From NCBI RefSeq assembly GCF_963921235.1, contig NC_086108.1:67520001-67584000 (forward strand): a stretch of DNA of 64,000 nt. Reading direction: 5' to 3'. The DNA is from Mobula hypostoma (lineage: Eukaryota). Each line of letters begins with the position of its first letter. The stretch's first letter is position 1. Of this stretch, positions 3,975-49,419 are shown in pieces. A model generated the notes under the pieces. That model was not told the origin of the DNA. It worked only from the letters and a program-made list of their open reading frames with translations, and ran no database searches. The position numbers and the translations under genes were made by a program.

Positions 3975-4378
3975 TAGGACTTTATTCCCTAGAGTGTAGG
4001 AGAATGGGGAGACAGTTGATAAAGGTACACAAAATTATGAAGGGTACAGATAGGGTAAATGTAAGCAGGCATTTTTCACTGTGGTTGGATAAGACTAGAA
4101 CTAAAGGTAAAGGTGAAAGGTGAATGTTTAAGGGGAACATGAGTAAGAGCTTCTTCACTCAGAGCGAGGTGAGGGTGTGGAATGAGCTGCCAGTGGAAGT
4201 AGAGGATGCAGGTTTGACTTCAACGTTTAAGAGAAATTTCAAAAGGTACATGGTTGGTATGGGTATGGAGGGTTATGGTCCAGGTGCAAATTATGGGACT
4301 GGCAGAACAATAGTTAGGCATGGACTAGATAGTCCATAGAGCCTGTTTCTCTGCTGTAGAGTTCTATGACTTTATGAC
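3975..4378 (+). mobile_element. CR1-type LINE 3' fragment
   Basis: FFTQSEVRVWNELP motif (CR1 ORF2 C-terminus) and a CTATGAC-like tail. Confidence 0.75.
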
Positions 4379-13096: not shown

Positions 13097-13296
13097 CAAA
13101 CACGAGGAAACCTGCAGAGGCTGGAATTTCAAGCAACACACATAAAAATGCTGGTGAACGCAGCAGGCCAGGCAACATCTATAGGAAGAGGTACAGTCAA
13201 CGTTTTGGGCCAAGATTAGTCCTGACGAAGAGTCTCGGCCCGAAACGTCGACTGTACCTCTTCCTATAGATGTTGCCTGGCCTGTTGCATTCACCC
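13097..13296. mobile_element. Penelope-derived repeat in an inverted (fold-back) arrangement with a hammerhead-like core
   Basis: Arms ~13152-13215 and ~13232-13295 are near-perfect reverse complements. The core AGTC-CTGACGA-AGAGTCTCGGCCC-GAAACGTC-GACT lies at 13218-13253. Confidence 0.7.
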
Positions 13297-14446
13297 AATA
13301 GAATGGACCACCAAAATACAATAAATATGCAATGAATATTGATAGAATATAATCACAGAACACTACAGCACAGAAACAGGCCCTTTGACCTATCTAGTCT
13401 GTGCCGAAACATTAATCTGCCTAGTTCCATTGACCTGCACCCAGGCCATAATCCTCCAAATCCTTCTTATCCACATACCTATCCAATTTCCCTGAACTAG
13501 GCCCAGGTTTAATCCTCTGAGATGTTGATGCCTAGGAACTTGAAAAGGTAGTGACTTTTTGTGTGCAGCTCCCAGGGAATCATCAAGTATTCCTGTTTAG
13601 AACAGTTTTAACTAATTAGATTTCCTAGCAGCTGGTTATACCTGGGCCAGCCCAAAACTAGGTATTATAAACTAACGTACAATATAACAATATAATATAA
13701 ATTGTTCATAAAAAAAACCTTTGTTAATCAGAGGGTGGTGAGAATGCAGAACTCACTTCCTGCTGGAATGGTTGATGCAATTAGTTTAGATGCATTATGT
13801 AGTACACATGCCTCCATTTATTCCCTCGTGGAATGTTGCCATCACTGGAGGACCAACATTACTGGTTGTCCAGTTGTCCCTGAGAAAGTGCTGAATTTTT
13901 TTAACTGCTTCAATTCTTCACATTAATATAATCCAAAATATTGTTGACAGCACATTTCTTTGATTTAAACTCGGTGATAATTAAGGAGCCAAAATATATG
14001 TGTGACTTTGACTGGGAACCTGCATGTGGTGGTTTTATTTACTAAGTGCCATTGTTCCTTTCAGTGTCGGAGACACAAGTTTGGGAATCACTGTGAATGT
14101 AGACTGAATAACGAATGGCAACGCATTTCAGAATGGTGCATACCGTACATTAAATGAGCTGCTTTAACCCAGAGCACGCAAGCTGTTGAGCTTTTAAATC
14201 AAAAGCCACGTTGACAAAATGAGGGTACGCCTGCTGAGATGAAGCATAAACACAATAGAATGCTTGGAACAAATAGTTAGCAATGGTTGTCCTTAATTGA
14301 TCCAACAATTGCTGATGAGAAATAAAAATATTCAACTGCAAAAATTACCTTAGGTGTATAAAACATGTGAGGATGTCATAGCATCAGATAGTTCAAACTT
14401 CCAGTAATGTTGCCAACTAGAAATGACAACGAAAGTGAACACATAT

Positions 14447-17843: not shown

Positions 17844-20650
17844 CGTAACGCGCTGTAAGGTTTCACTGCTAATCTAATGTTTTTTTTGTAATGTTCACTG
17901 CTGAAGTAACAGTTTCTCTGTAGCAGCAATGTTTGAGGTAAGGACGGACAACAACCGCCTAACTTATATCCTGACCTCAGTGAAACTGGATGCCACAGAC
18001 CATCTGTGATCGGCAGCGTTGTCTGCCTATGATTTCAGACTGAAGTACTGGCTGGGGAGCCGGAACGTTGATGCGAATGCTTTGTTCCGACGGGTGCATG
18101 AGGGACTGGACATGGACGAGGAGTGGGAGAGCGTTCCTGCCCCTGGGGTGAAAGCCATGTGTCAGTTTGCCATCACCATGAAGGCAGAGGAAAAGGAAAG
18201 GCCAGATCAAGCAGTGGATCAATTGGGGGCTTCTGATGATGCCATACCCCAAGTTTACTGTAACCTGACAGCTCTGAAGACAAATCCGTTGCCAGAATTG
18301 AGCTCTGGGGAAGTGGCAGCTGCTCAGCGAGATGATCCGGGCATTGGCACTATTTGGTCTGCGGTTGAAAGGGGAGACATGGCTCAGGCAGAGAAGATGA
18401 AACGTGTTTCGGTGCCTCCATTACTGAAAGAATGGCCTTGGTTGGAGCTGAAGAACCAGATCTTATACTGGGACATGTCACCCCCGGACCAACCTCGGCG
18501 ATGCCAGCTAGTTCTGCCCGAGAAGTATCAGAGGATTGTGTTGAAGTCACTTCATAATGGTTCTGGATATTTGGGGATGGAAAAAACCTATGGATTGCTC
18601 AGAGACCAGTTTTACTGGCCCCGAATGAAGTTGGGAGGTTGAGGAATACTGCAAGTCATGCATTCGCTGCATACAGCGGAAGACACTGCCTACGCGAGTA
18701 GCTCCCTTGTCCCATTTGCAGAGTGCGGGGCCTCTGGACCTGGTGTGTATGGATTTCCTGTCCATAAAGCCAGAGCCAGCAACATGGCGAATGTCTTAGT
18801 CATCACGGACCACTACACCAGATATGCTCAGGCTTTTCCTACCAAGGACCAGAGGGCGACTACAGTGGTAAAAGTGTTATGGGAGAAGTATTTTGTTTAT
18901 TATGGCCTTCCCAGGCGGATACATAGTGACCAGGGACAGGATTTTGAGATCAGACTCGTCTATGAGTTACTGGGCATGCTTGAAGTCGAGGACCACACCC
19001 TATCACCCGCAGGGCGATCCCCAACCTGAGAGGTTTAATTGGACCTTGCTAGACATGCTTGGGACCCTGGAGATCAGCAAGAAGAGCAGGTGGAGTCAAC
19101 ATATTGGGCATCTGGTTCACAGTTACAACTGTACGTGAAATGAAGCTACTGGGTACTCGCCATATTATCTGATGTTTGGGTGCGAGGCGAGGTTGCCCTT
19201 TGACCTTTGCTTTGGGATTGACGAGGGTGACTTACCACCGAAGCCTTATTTGAAGTATGTGTCTGATATGAGGGGAGAGCTGAAAGGGGCTTATGAATTG
19301 GCTGGGGTCGCAGCCACCAAGCAGAATCGAGGAAATAAGAGGAAGTATGATCAAAAAGTGAGGTTCTCCCAACTCCTGCCAGGAGACCGAGTCCTCATAA
19401 GGAACTTGGGGATACCTGGAATGCACAAGTTGGCTGACTGCTGGGCGGCCACACCCTAAGTGGTGGAGCGTCAGGTGCCAAACCTACCAGTTTTCCGGGT
19501 GAAACCAGAGGAGGGGAATGGTCCTGTCAAGATACTCCACCGGATCCACCTGTTGCCCCTGGGACGAGAGGTACAGGTAGACCCAGAGCCCGACTTGGAG
19601 CCTACACCTAGTAAGAGGACTCTGCGAAAATGTGGGGCGACTGCAGGGCCCACAGCAGGAGAAGCTGGGCTGGGCCCCGTCCATGAGAGGGATACTGATT
19701 CGGAGGATGATGATCTGGATGTGTGGTACATGCTGCTGTTCGCTAACTCCCCATTGACTGAGGCAGAGACTCCTGGCCCTTCTTCCACTGAGTCAGGTGA
19801 AGTGGAGGGGTGCTATCTGTGGGCAGCCTGGGTTACAGCAGGACCCTGAAGGAGAGAAAGCGGTGCCTGGACACGGGATAGGGGGCTCCGAGTGGCAGGG
19901 GGACATGAGTGATAGATCGGGAGGGAGGACTCGCCAAGTAGACCCGAAGAATCTACAGTCGCGTCTGAGCCTGAAGAGTTGGGTGAGGAGGTATGGAGGT
20001 CTCAGAGAATTAGGAGACCACCGGATAGGTTGGCTTATGTGGCGACTGGGGAACAGGGCGTGATCCCTACTGTTTTGGGGAGCTAGGTCACTGCCTTTTG
20101 CACCTGGATTGGGCTTTGTGTTTTGCAGGAAGGGTTGGCGAACTATCTCAATGTCATGAGGACATGACTAAATTTGGTTGGGGGAGAGTGTAATGCGCTG
20201 TAAGGGTTCACTGCTAATGTAATGGTTTGTTTCTAATGTTCACTGCTGAAGTAACAGTTTCTCTGTAGCAGCAATGTTTGGGTTGTGGCTGGAAATAACA
20301 GGATTATGGATGCTTGTTAGCCAATCAGGATTTTGTTGCCCTGTCTGGTGAATCTGGAAGCAGTTGATTTTGCGGGCTTTTGCCAGAGAGAGAGAGAGAG
20401 AGAGAGAGATGAACAAGAGGTGAATGGAGAGAGTTGGTAGACCGCCGGACAGGGTCTCTACTAACTACATTGTCAAAGGAAGAGTTAAAAAGCTTAATTG
20501 TTTAATTGCATATTGTGTACTGTTATTTTGGGGTACTGATTTGTTACGGGACACATCGCGCAGCATCCACCCAAACGAGAGTTCTTAAGTTTGGCCGGGC
20601 AGGGAGTTATCACCCCCTATATTAAGCTACTAGGCGAAGCGAGTGTTACA
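17844..20650 (+). mobile_element. Deleted Gypsy LTR retrotransposon (RNaseH end plus integrase, partial 5' LTR, 3' LTR) in MRPL55 intron 1
   Basis: The LTR start (C/T)GTAA(C/T)GCGCTGTAAGG occurs at 17844 and 20189. PPT GGGGGAGAG precedes 20189 and the LTR ends GTTACA at 20650. Frameshifted pol motifs: [54 protein letters not shown]. Confidence 0.9.
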
Positions 20651-36475: not shown

Positions 36476-37350
36476 CAGCCTCAAACATGGTCACATTGCC
36501 CCAGCTATCTGAAAAACTCCCAGAAACACTTTCCTTTCACCAATCAATTATTCCTCCTAATGCTATATTCACTTATGCACAGTCTGAGAATTGTCTTGAG
36601 GTAACTACCTTAAAAGTCATGCTTTTTAACTCACCTGCTAATTCCTGAAAATTTTAATGTAGAACTTCAGAACTTCCGAACTTCCTTTCCGTAACATTAT
36701 GTCCTGTGTAGGTCACTGCATCTGGGTATATTGGGGGTTCACCCTTGTAACATTCTAATAATGCCCTGACTACTTCATGTTAGCTGCCAAAAAAAAATAA
36801 ACATGGCTAACTGATAAAAAAAAACTGGAAGAGATATTACTGCTATCTCAAAGTCTCTTAAAAAATAGTTTTATTTTTATGCTTCCTTTGATTGGCAGAC
36901 TGTTTATAAAGCCTGCTGCTTTCTAGACCAGACTTTAGTTTGAAGCTGCTTCATCAGTTAGGCAAATCAAAGAACTTTTAGTTGTTTATTTGCTTGCCCA
37001 TACCCGAATCAGGTTTATTATTATTTGTTTTTCTGTTATGAAGTTTACAAGATCAAATAGTTATAAAAGCTAGAAATAATGACATTAGCTCTACTGTCTT
37101 CATGATAATGATGATAAAATGCACAGGGGTAAATTAATACAGGAAACCTTATCTTCATACTAAAGAAAATAGAAAATACCAGTAAATGTTTATATTAGTT
37201 GGATAAATGCTTAAGAGTTGTAATCGAATAATTGAATAATGATACATTTCCACAATGATGCAAGTCACAAGGAAATGCATATATAATGACATGTTTAACA
37301 CTGGAACCAGTGCAGCATCTTGATTTTATCTGTTTTTACTTCGTGAACAG

Positions 37351-37455
37351 ATTGGGGCTTCTCTAATGTCCAGTAATGTTGGGAGTGGCCTGTTTATCGG
37401 TCTGGCAGGCACTGGAGCTGCAGGAGGCATTGCTGTTGGTGGTTTTGAATGGAAT
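37351..37455 (+). CDS. SLC5A9: SGLT4 coding exon 3
   Basis: [45 protein letters not shown]. Confidence 0.93.
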
Positions 37456-38709
37456 GTAGGTTTGGTTGATAGATTTACAAAATGCACACAAAATTGAATT
37501 CATAAACAACATATACTTTTAAATTAATCTATCATCCATTGTATTCTTGATCTTAGTTCAAAATCTATTCATCGAAATTTCAATTTAAATTTTAAATCAA
37601 TTGCTCTTTCTAAACATTAGCGGCTACAAAATAAAATCAACAAATCTTACAGTAATAAATCTTTGAATTTATTCATCACTGCACCCTTGTCATGATATAA
37701 TGTTTATTTGAATGTGAATTAATTACTCTATTGGAAGGACAATATTTTCACCTAGTACGGTGTTACTTGCATTGAAGAATGTGCAAACAAATCAAAATGG
37801 GATTAGAATGTCTTTACCTTGATTTTCTTGTAGGTCCTAGTACAAAATCCATGGAAAATAACAAAAATAATTATTTCAACCTAATATTCAAAGTACAGCT
37901 TATATATAAAAACATTTTGTTAATACACAAATGCTCATTCAAGCTTATTTAAATGACATATATTCAGTGGCCACTTTATTAGGTACAGCAAGCATCTGTG
38001 TCCAAGTGTAAATATGATGGATGCCACATTTAAAGTAGAAACCTGTAGTTTACTAATTGCTGACAGCTTGGAGTTCTGCTTTGGATAATCCCACCTCTGA
38101 GAAAACAGGCCGGAAGATAAAATATATTTTAAAATAATCAAGGGGTTTTATAGGATGAATAGTGTGCTGTATAATATGGGACTACTTTATGTTATAGGGA
38201 CAAGTTGTTGCATGCGCTATTAGGCACGTATTGATCTGTACGTGTGTGTTCAGTTCGGTTTCAGTCAGTAAAGAGCCCTGTTAACTTAGCTCCTCTCTCC
38301 AGCGTTTTTATTTATAGCTTTGTTGTGTAACCCGGCCACTTACACAACAAATTGGCGACGAGGTTAATGAACCTACATCATATCGGAGCGTCGTGTTTTA
38401 ATTGTTAATGACACTCAAAGAAGAGCACAAGGTAGGAGCCAAGGTAGAGCGAGGCTGCAAGTCCGAAACAAAGTGGGAGCACAGCTGGGGTCGGGAACGT
38501 CGGGAGACCAAGAGACACAGTTGGAACCGCAGCATGTCCAGGCGAGACAACAGCCAGCGCTGAACCCCAGGGACTGAGGGTCTGCCTGCCCCAGAAGGGA
38601 GATAAAAAGAAGCGACACACACAATAGATGGAGTGCACTCGTGGCGCTAGCAAAAAGGTGACCTGAGTCAAAAAAAAAGGGAGAACAGGGCTAAATTAAC
38701 ATAACAAAG

Positions 38710-39885
38710 ATGGCGATGATTGGAACCATTACAGCATTTGATAGTAGCATTGAAGACTGGGCAACTTACATTGAAAGAGTGGAGTTACGTTGTGAGGCTA
38801 ATGGTGTTATTGATGAAAAGAAAGACAGTGTTTTACTCAGTATTATGGGAGCAAAAACATACGGCCTGCTACGGTGCTTGTTAACCCCTGAGAAGGCAGC
38901 TGACAAAACGTTCAAGCAAATAGTAGACACTCTCCAACAGCATTTAAGCTCCAAACCATGGGTCATGGCTGAAAGATTTAAATTTCACAATCAGAATCAG
39001 AGCAAAAATGAAAGCATTTCTGAATATTGTGCAAATTATCAGAATATTGTCAATTTGGAGTGGGTCTATCGGATGCATTGAGGGACAGGTTAGTGTGTGG
39101 CATGCACTGTGAAACCACACAGAAGAACAGAAGAAGCTCCTGTGTGAAAAAGACCTTACATTCGAGAAAGTGCCAAACACCTCAATATAAACTGAAACAG
39201 TGGCACGGGGTGCTTCCGAGATACAACGAAAATCTCTGGAATATGCCACAAATAAAATGTCACTGAACAGAAATGAAGGAAAGAAATGTTACCATTGTGG
39301 GAACATGTCATATGACCCTGATGACTGTTGGTTTAAAGACAAAGAATGCAGAAACTGTGGCAAACAGGGCCACATTGGCAGAGTATGCAAAGCCAGTAAA
39401 TAGCAGAAAAAGGACAAAATACAGAGAGAGAAGAAACCCCAGAAAGGAAAGCACAACAATGTACACAAAATGGAAGAAAGCAGTTCTGATGAAAATGACT
39501 CAGACAAAAATGAATTGTCTTGTCTGCAACTTCACAGCGTGAAAGAGGCAGATGATTGAAGAGTAATAAGGATCACTCCACAAGTGGCAGGTGTGAGACT
39601 GAAAATAGAGTTGGACACAGGCTTAGCTTTAACAATGATCTCTGTACATGACTACAAACGACTATTTTTTCACATACCTCTGAAATGAACTAAACTACTG
39701 CTAAAGACTTACACAGGACAGAAAGAGCGTCACAAAGGTAAAATTAAAGTGACAGTGACCTACGGAGACAAAACACAGCAGCTGAACCTCTATGTACTGG
39801 AAAATGGAGGGCCACCATTGTTGGGACGTGAATGGCTCAGGAAAATCCACTGGGATTGGCACACCATCAAGGCACTAGTTGTGTC
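38710..39885 (+). pseudogene. Decayed Gypsy gag-protease
   Basis: EDWATYIERVE...LLSIMG, ALRDRLVCG, CYHCG...C and [29 protein letters not shown], with frameshifts and in-frame stops at 39401, 39557 and 39686. Confidence 0.85.
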
Positions 39886-39913
39886 AGCAAAGGAGGGCAG
39901 CTCGGCGGGGAAG

Positions 39914-40573
39914 ATGTCCGCAGCTCTCCTCTCACCTATTGTCAACTATTACAATGACAAGGAGGAGCTAGACAGCATCGACAATGAGGACGAACACAGT
40001 ATCTGTGGCCGTGACTCAGATGAAGAGGATGCAAGGGAGACAGATATTGCCAATAAGCAGGATGATGAAGACTATCTGGAAGTAAAAGAGCAGATGTACC
40101 AGGAGAAATTGACATCTCTCAAAAGGCAGCTACAGCAGTTACAGGAAGGCAGTTTGCAGGAGTATCAGAAAGGGATGAAGAAACTAGATCAACAATACAA
40201 GGAAAGAATACGAAATGCAGAGCTTTTTCTGCAACTGGAGACAAAACAAGTGGAAAGGAAATATATTAAAAAGAAGAAAGCAGCAGTGAAGGAATTTGAA
40301 GATAAAAAGATTGAGTTAGAAGAAAGAAAAAATGATTGAGAATGAGAGGCTAACAATGGAACTCACAGGAGATTCTTTGGAGGTAAAGCCAATAATGACC
40401 AGGAAACTAAGGAGGAGACCTAATGACCCTGTTCCAATTACAGACAAAAGACGAAAACCTGCACCTGCACAGCTAAATTAACAGATGAACAGATAAAGGA
40501 AGATCTGTGAACTCTAAATAAGCTTAAATCTCTGAAAAGACCAGCATCTCTGTCTTCTCCTGAACAATTTCCT
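39914..40573 (+). pseudogene. SUDS3: Processed (intronless) partial copy of SUDS3, a Sin3-HDAC complex subunit
   Basis: MSAALLSP...[60 protein letters not shown]...[13 protein letters not shown]. After a frameshift it continues [49 protein letters not shown]...TDEQIKEDL*TLNKLKSLKRPASLSSPEQFP. There are no introns. Confidence 0.92.
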
Positions 40574-41374
40574 TGGGAAAGATCCATGAAAATTGAGCAT
40601 CCTTTAAAAACTCTTGGACAGAATCAATTCCATTCAAACAGAACAGCTTTCGCACAAGGTAAATCTTGAACCAATCATTTCCTCTATTGAGAATCATACA
40701 CTTAATCCTTTGCAGGGAAGTTTCTTTTGCACATACATAGTTTGAATCCTCAGCCTATGTGTCTTGTTTTGCTCAAAGAAGTTGGGAAACAGCATCAAAA
40801 CAGAGGCCAATTCTGGCAACAAATTGTAAGGTTTCTATTGTATTTTCACACTTGTGCTGAATGTGCATCTGAAGGAATTCTCCCTTTTGAGCCAGGTAAG
40901 CAATCTTTTCTTGCACTGTGCACAACTGGGATTTTTCATACATAGAATCCTCCAAACAATTCAGAAACAGTGCATAGAATTCAGTCTCATTTTCTTGACC
41001 ACGATTTGTTTTTTGAACTTCAGACAGATAGCACTGCAGGTAATCCTTAATATCAGCGAAACTGTACTTTAGCAGCAGCTTAAGAATAACGGAACGAACA
41101 ACAGGATTTCGATCAACTGCTTCATCAAACAGCGAAAGATTACTAGCAAAGTGCTGAACTTTCTGTGAGTCATTGGATTGCCTCGACTTTTAAATAACGA
41201 GCAGAGACAGCAGATCACCAACCACTTCTTTTTTGGTGGCAAGTCATTTTTGAAGCAGACCATGGAAACCAAAGCTACAAAAAATATATCACACCTCTTG
41301 CGAAATATAGCTAATTTTGCTACAGCTTCACTTATTTCTTCTGTTACTGCCGGTACATAATCATCATCTGGAGA
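40557..41374 (-). pseudogene. RNF213: Processed (intronless) internal fragment of RNF213 (mysterin), the region just C-terminal to the RING
   Basis: Manual minus-strand translation: PDDDYVPAVTEEISEAVAKLAIFRKRCDIFFVALVSMVCFKNDLPPK/EVVGDLLSLL...FDEAVDRNPVVRSVILKLLLKYSFADIKDYLQCYL...TEFYALFLNCLEDSMYEK...TIETLQFVARIGLCFD...NDWFKIYLVRKL...WIFPKEIV. This matches recalled RNF213 motifs (TPVIRSVILKLLLKYSF, LFINCLEDS, NDWHRVYLVRKL, WVFPKDVV). One frameshift and three stops. Confidence 0.88.
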
Positions 41375-43364
41375 AGTACCGCACCGTGGGCAGAGTCCTC
41401 CCCCAGAGACTTGCGTTATAAATGGGTCTTAGACCAATCATAAAAAAAAGGCTTGTTATAATTTTATATTATTATGTTACTTTGTTATAATTTGATATTA
41501 TTAAGTTACTAAGTAAACAATTGGTAGGCATTTGTATGTTAAAGGTAAACATATTTGTTTAGCGTAGTGCCCCAGTAAAAAAAAGTTGATAGACTATTAA
41601 AATACAAGTGGAGGAGTGTACTGTATAATATGGGACAACTTTATGTTGTAGGGACATGTTGTTGCATGCGCTAATAGGCGCGTATTGATCTGTACGTGTG
41701 TGCTCAGTTCAGTTTCGGTCAGTAAAGATCCCTGTTAACTTAGCTCCCGTCTCCAGCGTTTTTATTTATAGCTTTGTTGTGTAACCCGGCCACATACACA
41801 GCAAGTATGAACAGCCATATTTTACTTCTTTATTCTGACAAAAATTGCTTTAAATTGTGTGTTAAACATGGAAATGCCAATTAATGAGGAACCAGTTTAG
41901 GTTTCAATAGGTACATTTAATGCCAGAGAAATGTATACAATATATATCCTGAAATTCTTTTTTTTTGTAAACATCCACGAAAACAGAGAAGTGCCCCAAA
42001 GAATGAATGACAGTTAAAGGTTAGAACCCAAACCCCCCCTCTCGCAGCTCCCCCTCCCACACACAAGCATCAGCAAGGCAATGACCCCACCACCCCCACC
42101 AGCAAAAAAGCATCAGCGCCCTCCACCGAGCACTCAAGCCTGCAGCAAAGCATCAATAAACACACAGGCTTGCAGTATCCCGATGACTACTCATTCACCT
42201 GTTAATTTGACATACCGCAGGCTCTCTCTCTCCCTAATAAGGGAAAAAGAGGTTTCCCCGTTTCACAGCGAGAGGGGAGACATTACAAACAACGCTCCGA
42301 TTTACGATGTTAAAAGTTTGTTGCGTCGCCTTTTCTGAACTCTGCTCCATACAGTCGGCCCCAGAAAGGCTCAGATCTCTGGGCACACAACCCACAGCAG
42401 CTAACCCGCTGCTCTCGGTGTTCTGTATTCTCTCGCGACGCCTCAGTCATGGGCTCCTGCCTAGAATCAGCATGTCTCCAGAGCCACAAAAAAGCAACGT
42501 GTCCTTATGATGGAAAAGCTACAGAGCAGCAAAAGCAAGTCAGGATAATCGGACAGTATCAAACCAACACAGGACTACCCGTACGCAGAATCAACAGACC
42601 CAGACATATTTTTTGTCTTGTTAGATGTATCACGGTGTCTCAGCTTTATTGCTGAGCTCTTTATTGCCACAGCTTAATCTACAGGCAACTATTGCTATGA
42701 GATACAAAATGACCCATCAGCTGACTAATTTTAGGTACCCTCATATTTTCCATATCAGTCAATTTGCTTCGCATTAGTCTGCAATGCTGTCTTTACTGAG
42801 ATATCTCAATATATTCCACACTGGTGACTCAGAAGTGTCAATGGTTTTTAGAATTTTTTGATACAATAGTATCACACCCACGTTATAGTGAGTGCCACAA
42901 TGCTACTATTCGACAGCAGACTTCAAAAAGAAGCATTCTGCTCCAAAATTTGTCATGGAAAGTGATTACAGTATTAGGTGGACAAAGGATGGGGTTCAAG
43001 GATATGCTCAAAGTCTCCTTGAAGATTTTCAACTACCCCACTAAATCCTGGAAATATCTCTCAAAGTGAAAAAAGCACCTTGGGTGGCTTTGAGAACCTC
43101 GGGGTTATACATTGGAAGCATAGAAAAATCCCGCATACACACAGACTATCCACACCTGTCCTGATGAACATCACCTAATCTTCCTGTATTAGTCTCATTT
43201 GCCATACTCCTAAAATTCTACATGAAGTCACATTGGCTGTTTGACAACTGAAAAACAATAAGCCCTAGGGGTCACTTGGTATTTCTGCTGAAGCCCTAAA
43301 TCGTGGTTGAGAAGAATTTCGGTCGCAATAAACAACCTTATCTTCCTCGTGTGGGAAGAGGAAA

Positions 43365-43768: not shown

Positions 43769-44574
43769 ATCTTTAATATAGAGGATCTCATCTCCCATTC
43801 ATGGGTTACGGTACATGCAAGCTCAATGCCAGATGGGTGAAGTAGACATTTTTACTCTGGGATCCATCAGGGAAAGAGAATACAGGTGGACAAAAGAAAT
43901 AATCAAAGAATGTTTTCAAAACCTTCCAGGAAGAAATTTAAGATCTGCTCTGACTTCATGTGCTTACTCATATCCATCTGATGGGAGTACACAAAAGTCC
44001 TATGTAAACAATGGAAGGAACTCAACATTTCCCAAACTATCTAGCAACTTTGCTGAGCATGTGACCAAGTCCAATAGCCTCATTTGTGACCTTGAGACTC
44101 AATGAACTGCAAGTCATCCTTGATTCTAGGGGATGGTGTCAAACAAAATTATGCAAGGATTCCATTCCCTGTCTCTGTTAATCATTTTCAGTCTCTGCTG
44201 TAATCATTTTACACACCATTATCCCAGCTCAGAATCCAATTACAGAAGCCACAGCCAGGATAATTGCTGAGTAAGGAGAGATATACATTGTTCTTAGGCC
44301 TGGTGCCTGTCAGTTGAGTAATCCTTAGAGACGACACAAAAGAAATTCACAGGACGTTAGCAGAGATGAGCAATGTGTAGGGGAGATGTTGAAATAGTTA
44401 TATATGTCTCCTTTTTAAAAGAGAACATTAAGAGGTGAACTCATAAAGATTTTTAGGACCACGTTTTATTGGAATGAATAAAAAGAAGACCTCTTTGGAG
44501 CAATTGGACTAATAGCCAGAAGTCAGATTTTTGTGTACTCCCATCAGATGGATATGAATGAGCACATGAAGTCA

Positions 44575-45104
44575 GAGTGGATTCCAGTTAATTGGGACAC
44601 ATCGGGACCAGTACATTTTGGCCCAGTGAAGTAGCTACCTCAAATAGTTGAATTTTTATTGGAATGGTTAAAAAAAGACAAACAGCCATTTAACTGAGTA
44701 ACGAATTATGTGTTTAAGTGAAATACAGAAAAAATTAGAACACCACCAATACTACTACAGTACTACAAAACTGTGATTTGTTCCTAATAATTGGTTTAGT
44801 GGTTGGCTGGCTATCTAACAATGACAGAAAACCTGTGGAGGAGAGTTCTGCAATTACTCACTCCTGGCCACTTCTGGCATCTCCAATCCTGAATTCTTGA
44901 AACTGCAGTGAGCTTGTGTCTAACAGCCACACAAATGGCTGCCCCAGAAGTTAGAAACTGTTCAGTAACAGTCTCCTGCCCCAATTAAGGGGCATAGTGT
45001 CTCAAAAAAAGAAGAAAATCCCAGCTATTTTCTCAATTAATTTTTGCTCACTAAGAGTTGTCTCAAATAAGTTAACTGATGGACCAATTAACCAGAATCC
45101 ACTG
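44575..45104. mobile_element. Non-autonomous Tc1/mariner-pogo (Tigger-like) MITE
   Basis: Terminal inverted repeats AGTGGATTCCAGTTAATTGG and CCAATTAACCAGAATCCACTG; the right one is followed by TA. Confidence 0.65.
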
Positions 45105-45916: not shown

Positions 45917-46081
45917 GCTACTTGGCTTCTTGTGGCACTTGGTTGGATTTTTGTTCCAGTGTACATTGCTGCTGGTGTGGTTACTATGCCTGAATATTTA
46001 CAGAAAAGGTTTGGAGGACAAAGAATCCAAATCTACATGTCTGTATTATCTTTAATCCTGTATATATTTACTAAGATATCG
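45917..46081 (+). CDS. SLC5A9: SGLT4 coding exon 4
   Basis: [65 protein letters not shown]. Confidence 0.93.
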
Positions 46082-48185: not shown

Positions 48186-49419
48186 TCTTCAGATACAGCT
48201 GAAAAGTATCAGTACATTCATCATGTTAACATTTGGTGAAATTCTGTTAAGCAATTTTGATGCCTTAAGTAAATCTGATGTTTGAACATATAAATGTGTA
48301 TATAAGAGCAAGGACAGACCACTCAGCCCCTCTAGCCTGTCCTATCTTTCAAACAGATCATGTTTGATATATCTGTATCCTCACCCCCATGTTTCTGCTT
48401 GTTCCCAATAACCTTTCAGTCCTGATCTCATCTGGAATCCGTTCAATTCTGCCTTGAAATCATCAAGGATTCTACTTCCACCATCTTTCAGGAAGAGAAA
48501 TCCAAAATTTATAACACTCTGAAAGTAAAAATATTGCTTCATCTCTGTCTTCTATTGATATCCCTTATGTTTTAACCCTGACCACTAGTTCTAGATTCTC
48601 CCCCAAGAACAGGCATCATTTCCACATCCGCCCAGTTAAAATCACTCAGAGGTATTAGCTGTTACAACCCAATCACCTTGTACTCTTCTAAACTTCATTT
48701 GAACCTTGCACAAAGATGTTACAATATTCAAACAAACTTCTCATATCAGAGTCTGCATTATGGATAACTTGGTAGTATTAACCTGGATTTAACTAATTCA
48801 TAAAATATAACAAGAAAAGAAAGCAATAATATGTACCTTGTTAACTTTCAATTAAGAGCAGATGCTAAGCAGCTCTGGAGATAAGTAGCTGATGTGGCAC
48901 TTTCTTTGGAATTTCACTAAAAATCTATTGACACTGCTAGCAAACAAAAGTCAGACGCAAAGTCCTTAGTTTTCTATTGTCAGTGAAGAAAGAAAATACC
49001 CAATGGAATGATGTCAAGAATAATAGGTATTTTAAAGACTTCTATTTAAGTATGCATATTACTGGAGTTTTGATTGGATACCTAAACCCAAAGGGAATAG
49101 TGCAATAGTTAATCTTATATAACACTTTAACTGAATAGAAGTGTATTTATAAACACAAGAGGTACTGCAGATAGATGCTGGAAACCCAGAGCAATACACA
49201 CAATGTGCTGGAGTAGCTCAGCAGCTCAGGCAGTATCTATGAATGGGAATAAACAGTCGACGTGGGTTTCAGCCCAAAACGGCAACTGTTTATTCCCATC
49301 CATTGATGCTGCCTGACCTGCTGAGCTCTTCCAGCACATTGTGTGTATTATTTAAATGGGATGTTTACATTTGGATCAGTTTAAGTCAGTCAAATGAAAA
49401 GAAAAATGTAGATATTGCA

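Follow-up and report, generated by a model that had tools for sequence, protein, structure and literature searches.

A reversed RNF213 cDNA fragment, probably passive cargo of a multi-copy, non-autonomous LTR retrotransposon family, within an SLC5A intron of a ray

We propose that the RNF213 sequence on the minus strand of the 64,000-nt stretch of DNA analysed here (the window) travels as passive cargo in a non-autonomous Ty3/gypsy retrotransposon family that gained its host sequences stepwise, a reading that we hold to be probable. RNF213 is an immune gene that encodes an antiviral E3 ligase, and the fragment described here belongs to a multi-copy family that carries it along, and is not a feature specific to this locus. 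The underlying mechanism, LTR-mediated retroposition, is known; what varies here is the reversed orientation of one cargo, together with the amplification. The features of the element and of its host intron are as follows.

37351..37455, plus strand: SLC5A (SLC5A9-like) host exon upstream of the element (AG/GT ends, translation)
38163..38349, plus strand: 5' LTR of 187 nt, TG...CA (repeat comparison; bridged to its flank by a contig of organism B)
38353..38363, plus strand: primer-binding-site-like motif, 3 nt past the 5' LTR (sequence)
38710..39403, plus strand: broken gag with a CCHC zinc knuckle (zf-CCHC, E 4e-5; frameshift and stops)
39560..39901, plus strand: aspartic protease remnant with a DTG motif and one stop (gag-asp_proteas, E 6e-6, just below the Pfam cut-off)
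39902..40563, plus strand: captured SUDS3 cDNA, comprising the end of the 5' UTR, the ATG at 39914 and the first ~240 codons (Sds3, E 9e-9; PDB 4zqa, E 3e-25)
40560..40572, no strand assigned: SUDS3/RNF213 junction (4-nt shared word, 10/13 similarity, inferred RNF213 exon end)
40560..41395, upper limit possibly 41410, minus strand: captured RNF213 cDNA fragment (PDB-chain and protein-database matches, profile extension)
40896..41023, plus strand: cryptic GT-AG intron of 128 nt in the anti-RNF213 sequence (joint in DNA runs X2, X3 and X13)
41411..41616, plus strand: high-copy 3' region, perhaps derived from the pol tail or a UTR, with a 29-nt tandem pair and a polypurine tract at 41606-41616 (repeats, sequence, contigs)
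41617..41803, plus strand: 3' LTR (LTR comparison)
45917..46081, plus strand: next SLC5A host exon (SSF, E 5e-15; SGLT1, E 3e-23)

The element lies inside an SLC5A intron, on the same strand as the host gene. An earlier note on this DNA had described the RNF213 sequence as antisense both to the element and to the host gene, and this is indeed the case: gag, protease, SUDS3 and the two flanking host exons all read on the plus strand and RNF213 reads on the minus strand, the paralogue name SLC5A9 being one that we presume from a motif. The two LTRs differ at 14 of 187 sites (K2P 0.079), and the target-site duplication outside them is imperfect, with 3 of 5 bases matching. The primer-binding-site-like motif resembles what we take to be the 3' end of tRNA-Ser; the window itself holds no tRNA gene. 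The gag region also gives a weak PNMA match (E 0.003). No RT, RNase H or integrase was recognisable by eye in the three plus-strand frames between the LTRs, and the cargo occupies 39902-41395, so that the internal ORF has been replaced rather than merely interrupted. At the left edge of the cargo, seven contigs from DNA run X2 diverge from the window at 39901 into what appears to be a continuation of pol. A frame check places the SUDS3 cDNA in frame with the protease, with deletions and frameshifts arising later, and a contig from run X1 (40091-40563) goes on into SUDS3 C-terminal sequence. On its sequence features, the element is a non-autonomous Ty3/gypsy retrotransposon whose RT, RNase H and integrase have been swapped for a sense SUDS3 cDNA. 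The same intron also holds, at 43943-44582, a MITE-like pair of 57-nt inverted repeats (91%) lying 526 nt apart.

The identity of the reversed cargo is clear. Translation of the minus strand yields two RNF213 pieces, one of 58 aa (41228-41401) and one of 223 aa (40563-41231), linked by a single frameshift at an A-run near 41228-41236, with exactly three stops within the longer piece. A search of PDB chains aligns with RNF213 all 223 residues of the longer piece (chain 4126-4351, E 2e-42) and residues 3-58 of the 58-aa one (chain 4071-4126, E 8e-11); for each piece, all nine of the distinct sequences matched in this search are RNF213. The top protein-database match of the fragment is an RNF213-like protein of Leucoraja erinacea (E 4e-83, 67% identity, 100% cover), and 18 of 18 matches are homologous across the fragment region, all of the gene-named ones being RNF213. 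The minus-strand RNF213 reading with one frameshift and three stops, put forward in the earlier note together with a best-match check, is therefore borne out by translation and by both searches. Its extent needs correcting: the fragment is real, and its upper limit of 41374 was set too low, the homology reaching 41395 and taking in the last RING CxxC along with the E3 region downstream. Above 41410 there is no significant RNF213 homology (890 of 2000 random windows scored equally high). The earlier note had called the fragment missed by the ORF track, but a stop-to-stop listing of ORFs does pick up two pieces of it (40773-41189 and 41069-41428). Stops, frameshift and fragmentary length rule out a functional RNF213 paralogue. 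Among the copies listed, two of the three stops arise from bases that the others do not share, and the frameshift at the A-run is missing from many of them, so the decay is later than the capture. Metagenome scans contributed little, since the skate RNF213-like protein gave 0/21 confirmed stretches and the fragment itself 2/52, at 30-33% identity, which were left unused.

The fragment corresponds to about residues 4031-4312 of human RNF213 (chain offset 40; 5247 vs 5207 residues). This offset rests on the residue count and variant positions, and on a human length that we take to be 5207. The positions R4062, R4131 and K4185 all fall inside the matched segment. In human RNF213, as tabulated in PMC5472300 (Table 1), they belong to exons 45, 46 and 48, respectively. 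By human numbering, at least three introns are thus gone, which argues for a spliced-RNA source. In addition, the rabbit and lumpfish RNF213 models both break directly after NCLE, where the window continues in a stop-free frame. The fragment therefore appears to have come through spliced RNA, with intron positions taken from other vertebrates, and the same would hold relative to the RNF213 gene of the ray itself. The crossing of parental exon junctions, which had been suggested as a check, is in this way borne out by orthology, from human exon numbering and the breaks at NCLE, and the contrary case of a segment inside one parental exon does not apply, at least three exon junctions being crossed by human numbering. 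For the exon 49/50 boundary of human RNF213, no usable position was found in the literature consulted. Neither end of the fragment carries a poly(A) tail or an mRNA 3' end, as fits an internal segment of the transcript, and a LINE-made processed pseudogene was rejected for want of a tail.

That the fragment travels with a family is evident from the contigs of four of the 24 listed sequencing runs, which were compared with 37300-41612 at 85% likeness. In DNA runs X2, X3 and X13, depth over unique flank is ~69x, ~72x and ~41x for the anti-RNF213 sequence, ~620x, ~560x and ~180x for SUDS3, and ~820x, ~815x and ~310x for gag and protease; these are rough figures, summed contig depth not being copy number. 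They suggest tens of RNF213-bearing copies among hundreds with SUDS3 in three organisms. A contig of organism D crosses the SUDS3/RNF213 junction with 47 differences over 415 nt. Secondary retroposition as a non-autonomous element is accordingly supported by the multi-copy depth, by the bridged junction and by a spliced-out DNA form described below. Further recurrent deletions (39976-40033, with the joint 39982>40034, and 40549-40628, with the joint 40548>40629) appear in DNA contigs from at least two organisms and mark subfamilies, the second of them taking out the SUDS3/RNF213 junction. For the insertion itself, a contig of organism B (37965-38233, 3 differences) joins the flank to the 5' LTR, so the insertion at the SLC5A intron is older than the split of organisms A and B. 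An absolute date was rejected: with the epaulette shark rate of 7e-10 per generation, as given in PMC10587355, K=0.079 would mean ~56 million generations, which is implausible, and dating is relative only. One contig at single-copy depth departs from SUDS3 at 40247 into a stretch that starts with GT and may mark a SUDS3 intron.

Database proteins of other rays allow the captures to be put in order. A Mobula birostris "SDS3-like" protein (XP_072098599.1) combines a protease-side lead-in with the whole SUDS3 C-terminus, and shares with the window an 8-residue deletion and two substitutions; with full SUDS3 in element context, it indicates that the SUDS3-only form arose first. In Hemitrygon akajei, a pair of "YBX1-like" models (XP_072884955.1 and XP_072920092.1) consist of the SUDS3 N-terminus, the YBX1 cold-shock domain and then a plus-strand reading of the anti-RNF213 sequence, with Gag preceding SUDS3 in one of the two, and they are likely mis-annotated element copies with a third cargo. 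A change from S to R is common to the window and both Hemitrygon models and missing from the Mobula protein which, together with the anti-RNF213 tail, indicates that YBX1 was the third cargo, taken up by the subfamily that already carried RNF213. The order would thus be SUDS3, RNF213, YBX1. A protein search with the 40-residue plus-strand reading of the junction gave two candidates, neither of which passed; it was weak, and missed even the part-carrier XP_072884955.1. Separately, a Hemitrygon SUDS3 model (XP_072921551.1) has two extra segments, the first of which matches repeats of the window (e.g. 13217-13297) and appears to be a false or alternative exon of repeat origin.

How, then, might these captures have come about? 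In the scenario that we favour, a gypsy element would have exchanged its RT, RNase H and integrase for spliced SUDS3 mRNA, in frame with Gag and protease, and the resulting element would have multiplied through the enzymes of intact relatives, a form of trans-mobilisation. One SUDS3 copy would then have gained a spliced RNF213 segment in reverse through a jump of the RT at a short similar patch, either by copying sense RNF213 RNA in the plus-strand phase or by copying RNF213 cDNA in the minus-strand phase. This RNF213 subfamily would have retrotransposed to tens of copies, some losing the cryptic intron by splicing and some gaining YBX1, and the window copy, which has since decayed, would have entered the SLC5A intron ahead of the split between organisms A and B. 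The earlier note had held that antisense capture requires a switch onto an opposite-strand template; such a switch may have occurred but need not have, since plus-strand-phase copying, a splice-made junction or the DNA-level insertion of a cDNA would give the same orientation.

These routes can be weighed at the SUDS3/RNF213 junction. There, the RNF213 sequence and the continuation of SUDS3 are similar at 10 of 13 positions, the best value among 824 positions of the RNF213 fragment, and the 6/9 match beyond the 4-nt shared word has P ~0.012; of the three cargo junctions, microsimilarity could be partly checked at this one only. We put capture by a microsimilarity-guided jump with reversed polarity at about even chances. 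The same junction also falls at a probable exon end, a coincidence that runs against a jump in that microsimilarity switching does not predict it. The RNF213 reading of the window stops at the 9th residue of a W-x-F-P-x-E-x-x-x motif, in CAG; the carp RNF213 model skips an exon that starts just past this residue, and the lumpfish model resumes within one codon of it. By chance, junction and exon end would coincide about 3% of the time (a rough figure from mean exon size), the exon end being deduced from these two bony-fish gene models. A chimeric or circular sense RNA serving as template in the plus-strand phase would account at once for the reversal, the missing introns and the end that coincides exactly with an exon. 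In one version, an intron of RNF213 harboured a SUDS3 element in antisense, and the donor of an RNF213 exon was spliced to a cryptic CAG|G on the antisense strand of that element; in the other, a back-spliced, whole-exon RNF213 circle was copied once round and the copying re-entered SUDS3. The antisense strand of SUDS3 does read CAG|G at the junction, and mouse has circRNA-derived pseudogenes that are flanked by LTR sequence (PMC4897178). We nevertheless regard the spliced and the circular version, taken jointly, as a tentative possibility only: the supposed acceptor is purine-rich (~7/20 pyrimidines, by eye), the exon end comes from just those two fish models, the upper RNF213 end of the window copy lies within the RING and not at an established exon start, with no back-splice junction seen, and the 10/13 similarity speaks in its own right for a jump here.

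The RNF213 transcript is longer than 15 kb, and the fragment is internal to it. Somewhat less probable, and in our view unlikely, is a patch at the DNA level, in which the RT of a LINE or of another source made an RNF213 cDNA that filled a break in a SUDS3 element in random orientation, and the patched copy then retrotransposed. The orientation would need no special cause, and remnants of LINE RT are plentiful in the window, but the lack of a poly(A) tail or mRNA 3' end speaks against it, and it leaves both the junction patch and the coincidence with an exon end without explanation. An assembly artefact or chance similarity we consider next to negligible. No run had half of the words of the stretch, and no listed contig covers the whole of it; against this stand E-values of ~1e-83, the bridging of the junction in organism D and the RefSeq models of Hemitrygon akajei that end in the same plus-strand tail.

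Was the anti-RNF213 strand ever transcribed? The 128-nt cryptic intron is retained in the window copy and missing from other copies in DNA, the spliced-out form having a depth over flank of ~13x, ~12x and ~6x in the three DNA runs. Its donor (CAG|GTAAGC) is the sole AG|GTRAG on the plus strand of the 3267-nt element interior, and its acceptor is T-rich and ends in TTCAG; a strict acceptor scan of the plus strand of the element (at least 13/18 pyrimidines) returned 0 sites, the acceptor at 41023 lying below the cut. Intron-less copies in DNA imply that anti-RNF213 element RNA was transcribed, spliced and re-inserted, and such RNA would thus have existed in the past. Less probably, the joint may be a deletion at a 3-nt repeat instead of splicing. 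Skipping of an RNF213 exon was rejected as its source, the splice signals being on the plus strand. Contigs from run X1, whose status as RNA is a guess, cover the fragment, with an exact match over 40940-41130 and the joint 40894>41024, and are unstranded and give no level. The suggestion that element transcripts complementary to RNF213 mRNA are produced thus holds for the past, through the spliced-out plus-strand intron in DNA, with the present day lying outside that support.

If the fragment is carried and was at one time transcribed, might it also regulate RNF213? A functional antisense regulator would feed piRNAs or endo-siRNAs against RNF213 mRNA and be kept by selection on host or element. 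In its favour are the past transcription of anti-RNF213 RNA (the spliced-out form), the tens of copies, and the siRNA cross-talk that gene capture brings about in maize elements (10.1101/777037, in the portion consulted). Divergence from the window copy points the other way: it is 160/1516 (0.106) for the anti-RNF213 sequence, 264/2480 (0.106) for gag and protease and 105/1056 (0.099) for SUDS3. The figures come from the 21 longest contig pieces listed, out of more than 21,000, with exact matches, pieces that span a junction and the contig resembling SUDS3 mRNA set aside, and test neutrality only weakly. The anti-RNF213 piece shows no extra conservation, and its divergence equals that of gag and protease, as neutral cargo would show. 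If the divergence from the true mRNA is taken as 7-11%, perfect matches would remain for only 9-22% of 21-mers, which leaves some room for cross-talk, and copies exist with deletions or with the YBX1 replacement inside the RNF213 piece. For the capturing maize elements, no gain in copy number is reported in the text consulted of the same study (10.1101/777037). Small-RNA action on RNF213 as a selected function is thus unlikely, and a regulator maintained by selection is, in our judgement, improbable. More doubtful still is the combination in which whole-exon backward capture through a splice-made or circular template is followed by a spread to tens of copies whose germline transcripts feed anti-RNF213 piRNAs, with SUDS3 and YBX1 in sister copies; if true, it would extend capture-driven epigenetic conflict to a vertebrate, with an antiviral E3 ligase as the target. 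Passive cargo remains the preferred reading.

Among known systems, the closest are the LTR-mediated retrocopies, or pseudo-LTR retrotransposons, of animals (Tan et al. 2016, PMC5131818). As in those described there, the ORFs here have been replaced by partial spliced mRNA with both LTRs and the PBS and PPT kept, one element draws on several parental genes with in-frame fusion, and there is intronic insertion and secondary retroposition. Microsimilarity marks switch points in that study and may do so at the SUDS3/RNF213 junction; one fly family described there switches near an exon-exon junction. Unlike those, one cargo here is reversed relative to the element (a word search of the main text of PMC5131818 turned up no mention of cargo orientation), and the copies number tens to hundreds across several species as against a few fly insertion sites. 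The circRNA-derived pseudogenes of Dong et al. (2016, PMC4897178), as far as described in the portion consulted, are likewise multi-copy, made of internal exons without poly(A) and associated with LTR sequence. In comparison, only one end here is an inferred exon end, and the window copy has no visible back-splice junction and is reversed inside an intact LTR shell. As with gene capture by maize transposable elements (Muyle et al., 10.1101/777037, on the part consulted), small RNAs from captured pieces of host exons could act back on the donor gene; the maize case involves a plant system of 24-nt siRNAs and DNA methylation. Finally, according to a recent preprint (bioRxiv 10.64898/2026.06.26.734816), SUDS3 ranks with the leading parents of retrocopies in cartilaginous fishes, and this high copy number agrees with our contig depths. 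The numbers there are tied to non-LTR elements and selective filtering, unlike the single LTR family here, and RNF213 and YBX1 are absent from the text of that preprint that was available. In the full-text literature searched, we found no description of this SUDS3/RNF213 LTR family, nor of antisense capture from a template that was circular or made by splicing and was copied in the plus-strand phase, though the supplements of papers could hold antisense cases or the family itself.

The family offers a clear vertebrate example of serial capture (SUDS3, reversed RNF213, YBX1) by one LTR family that went on multiplying. Its many copies let the junctions and the order of events be read directly, and make the question of how antisense cargo enters an element testable, the exon-exact SUDS3/RNF213 junction deserving the closest attention. 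If it were true that the element regulates RNF213, this would matter more than the capture itself. The family also plausibly explains the rank of SUDS3 among the retrocopy parents of cartilaginous fishes, and bears on annotation, since the RefSeq models labelled "SDS3-like" or "YBX1-like" in rays include copies of the element.

Elsewhere in the window, 17845-20293 holds another LTR element, whose 104-nt repeats are 88% identical and which contains broken integrase-like frames at 18010-19849; it is too short for a full pol and hence internally deleted. Head-to-head repeats lie at 13153-13295 and 49193-49349, as near-perfect inverted pairs of 63-71 nt with spacers of 15-17 nt, and a tandem array of a 38-nt repeat occupies 2621-2867.
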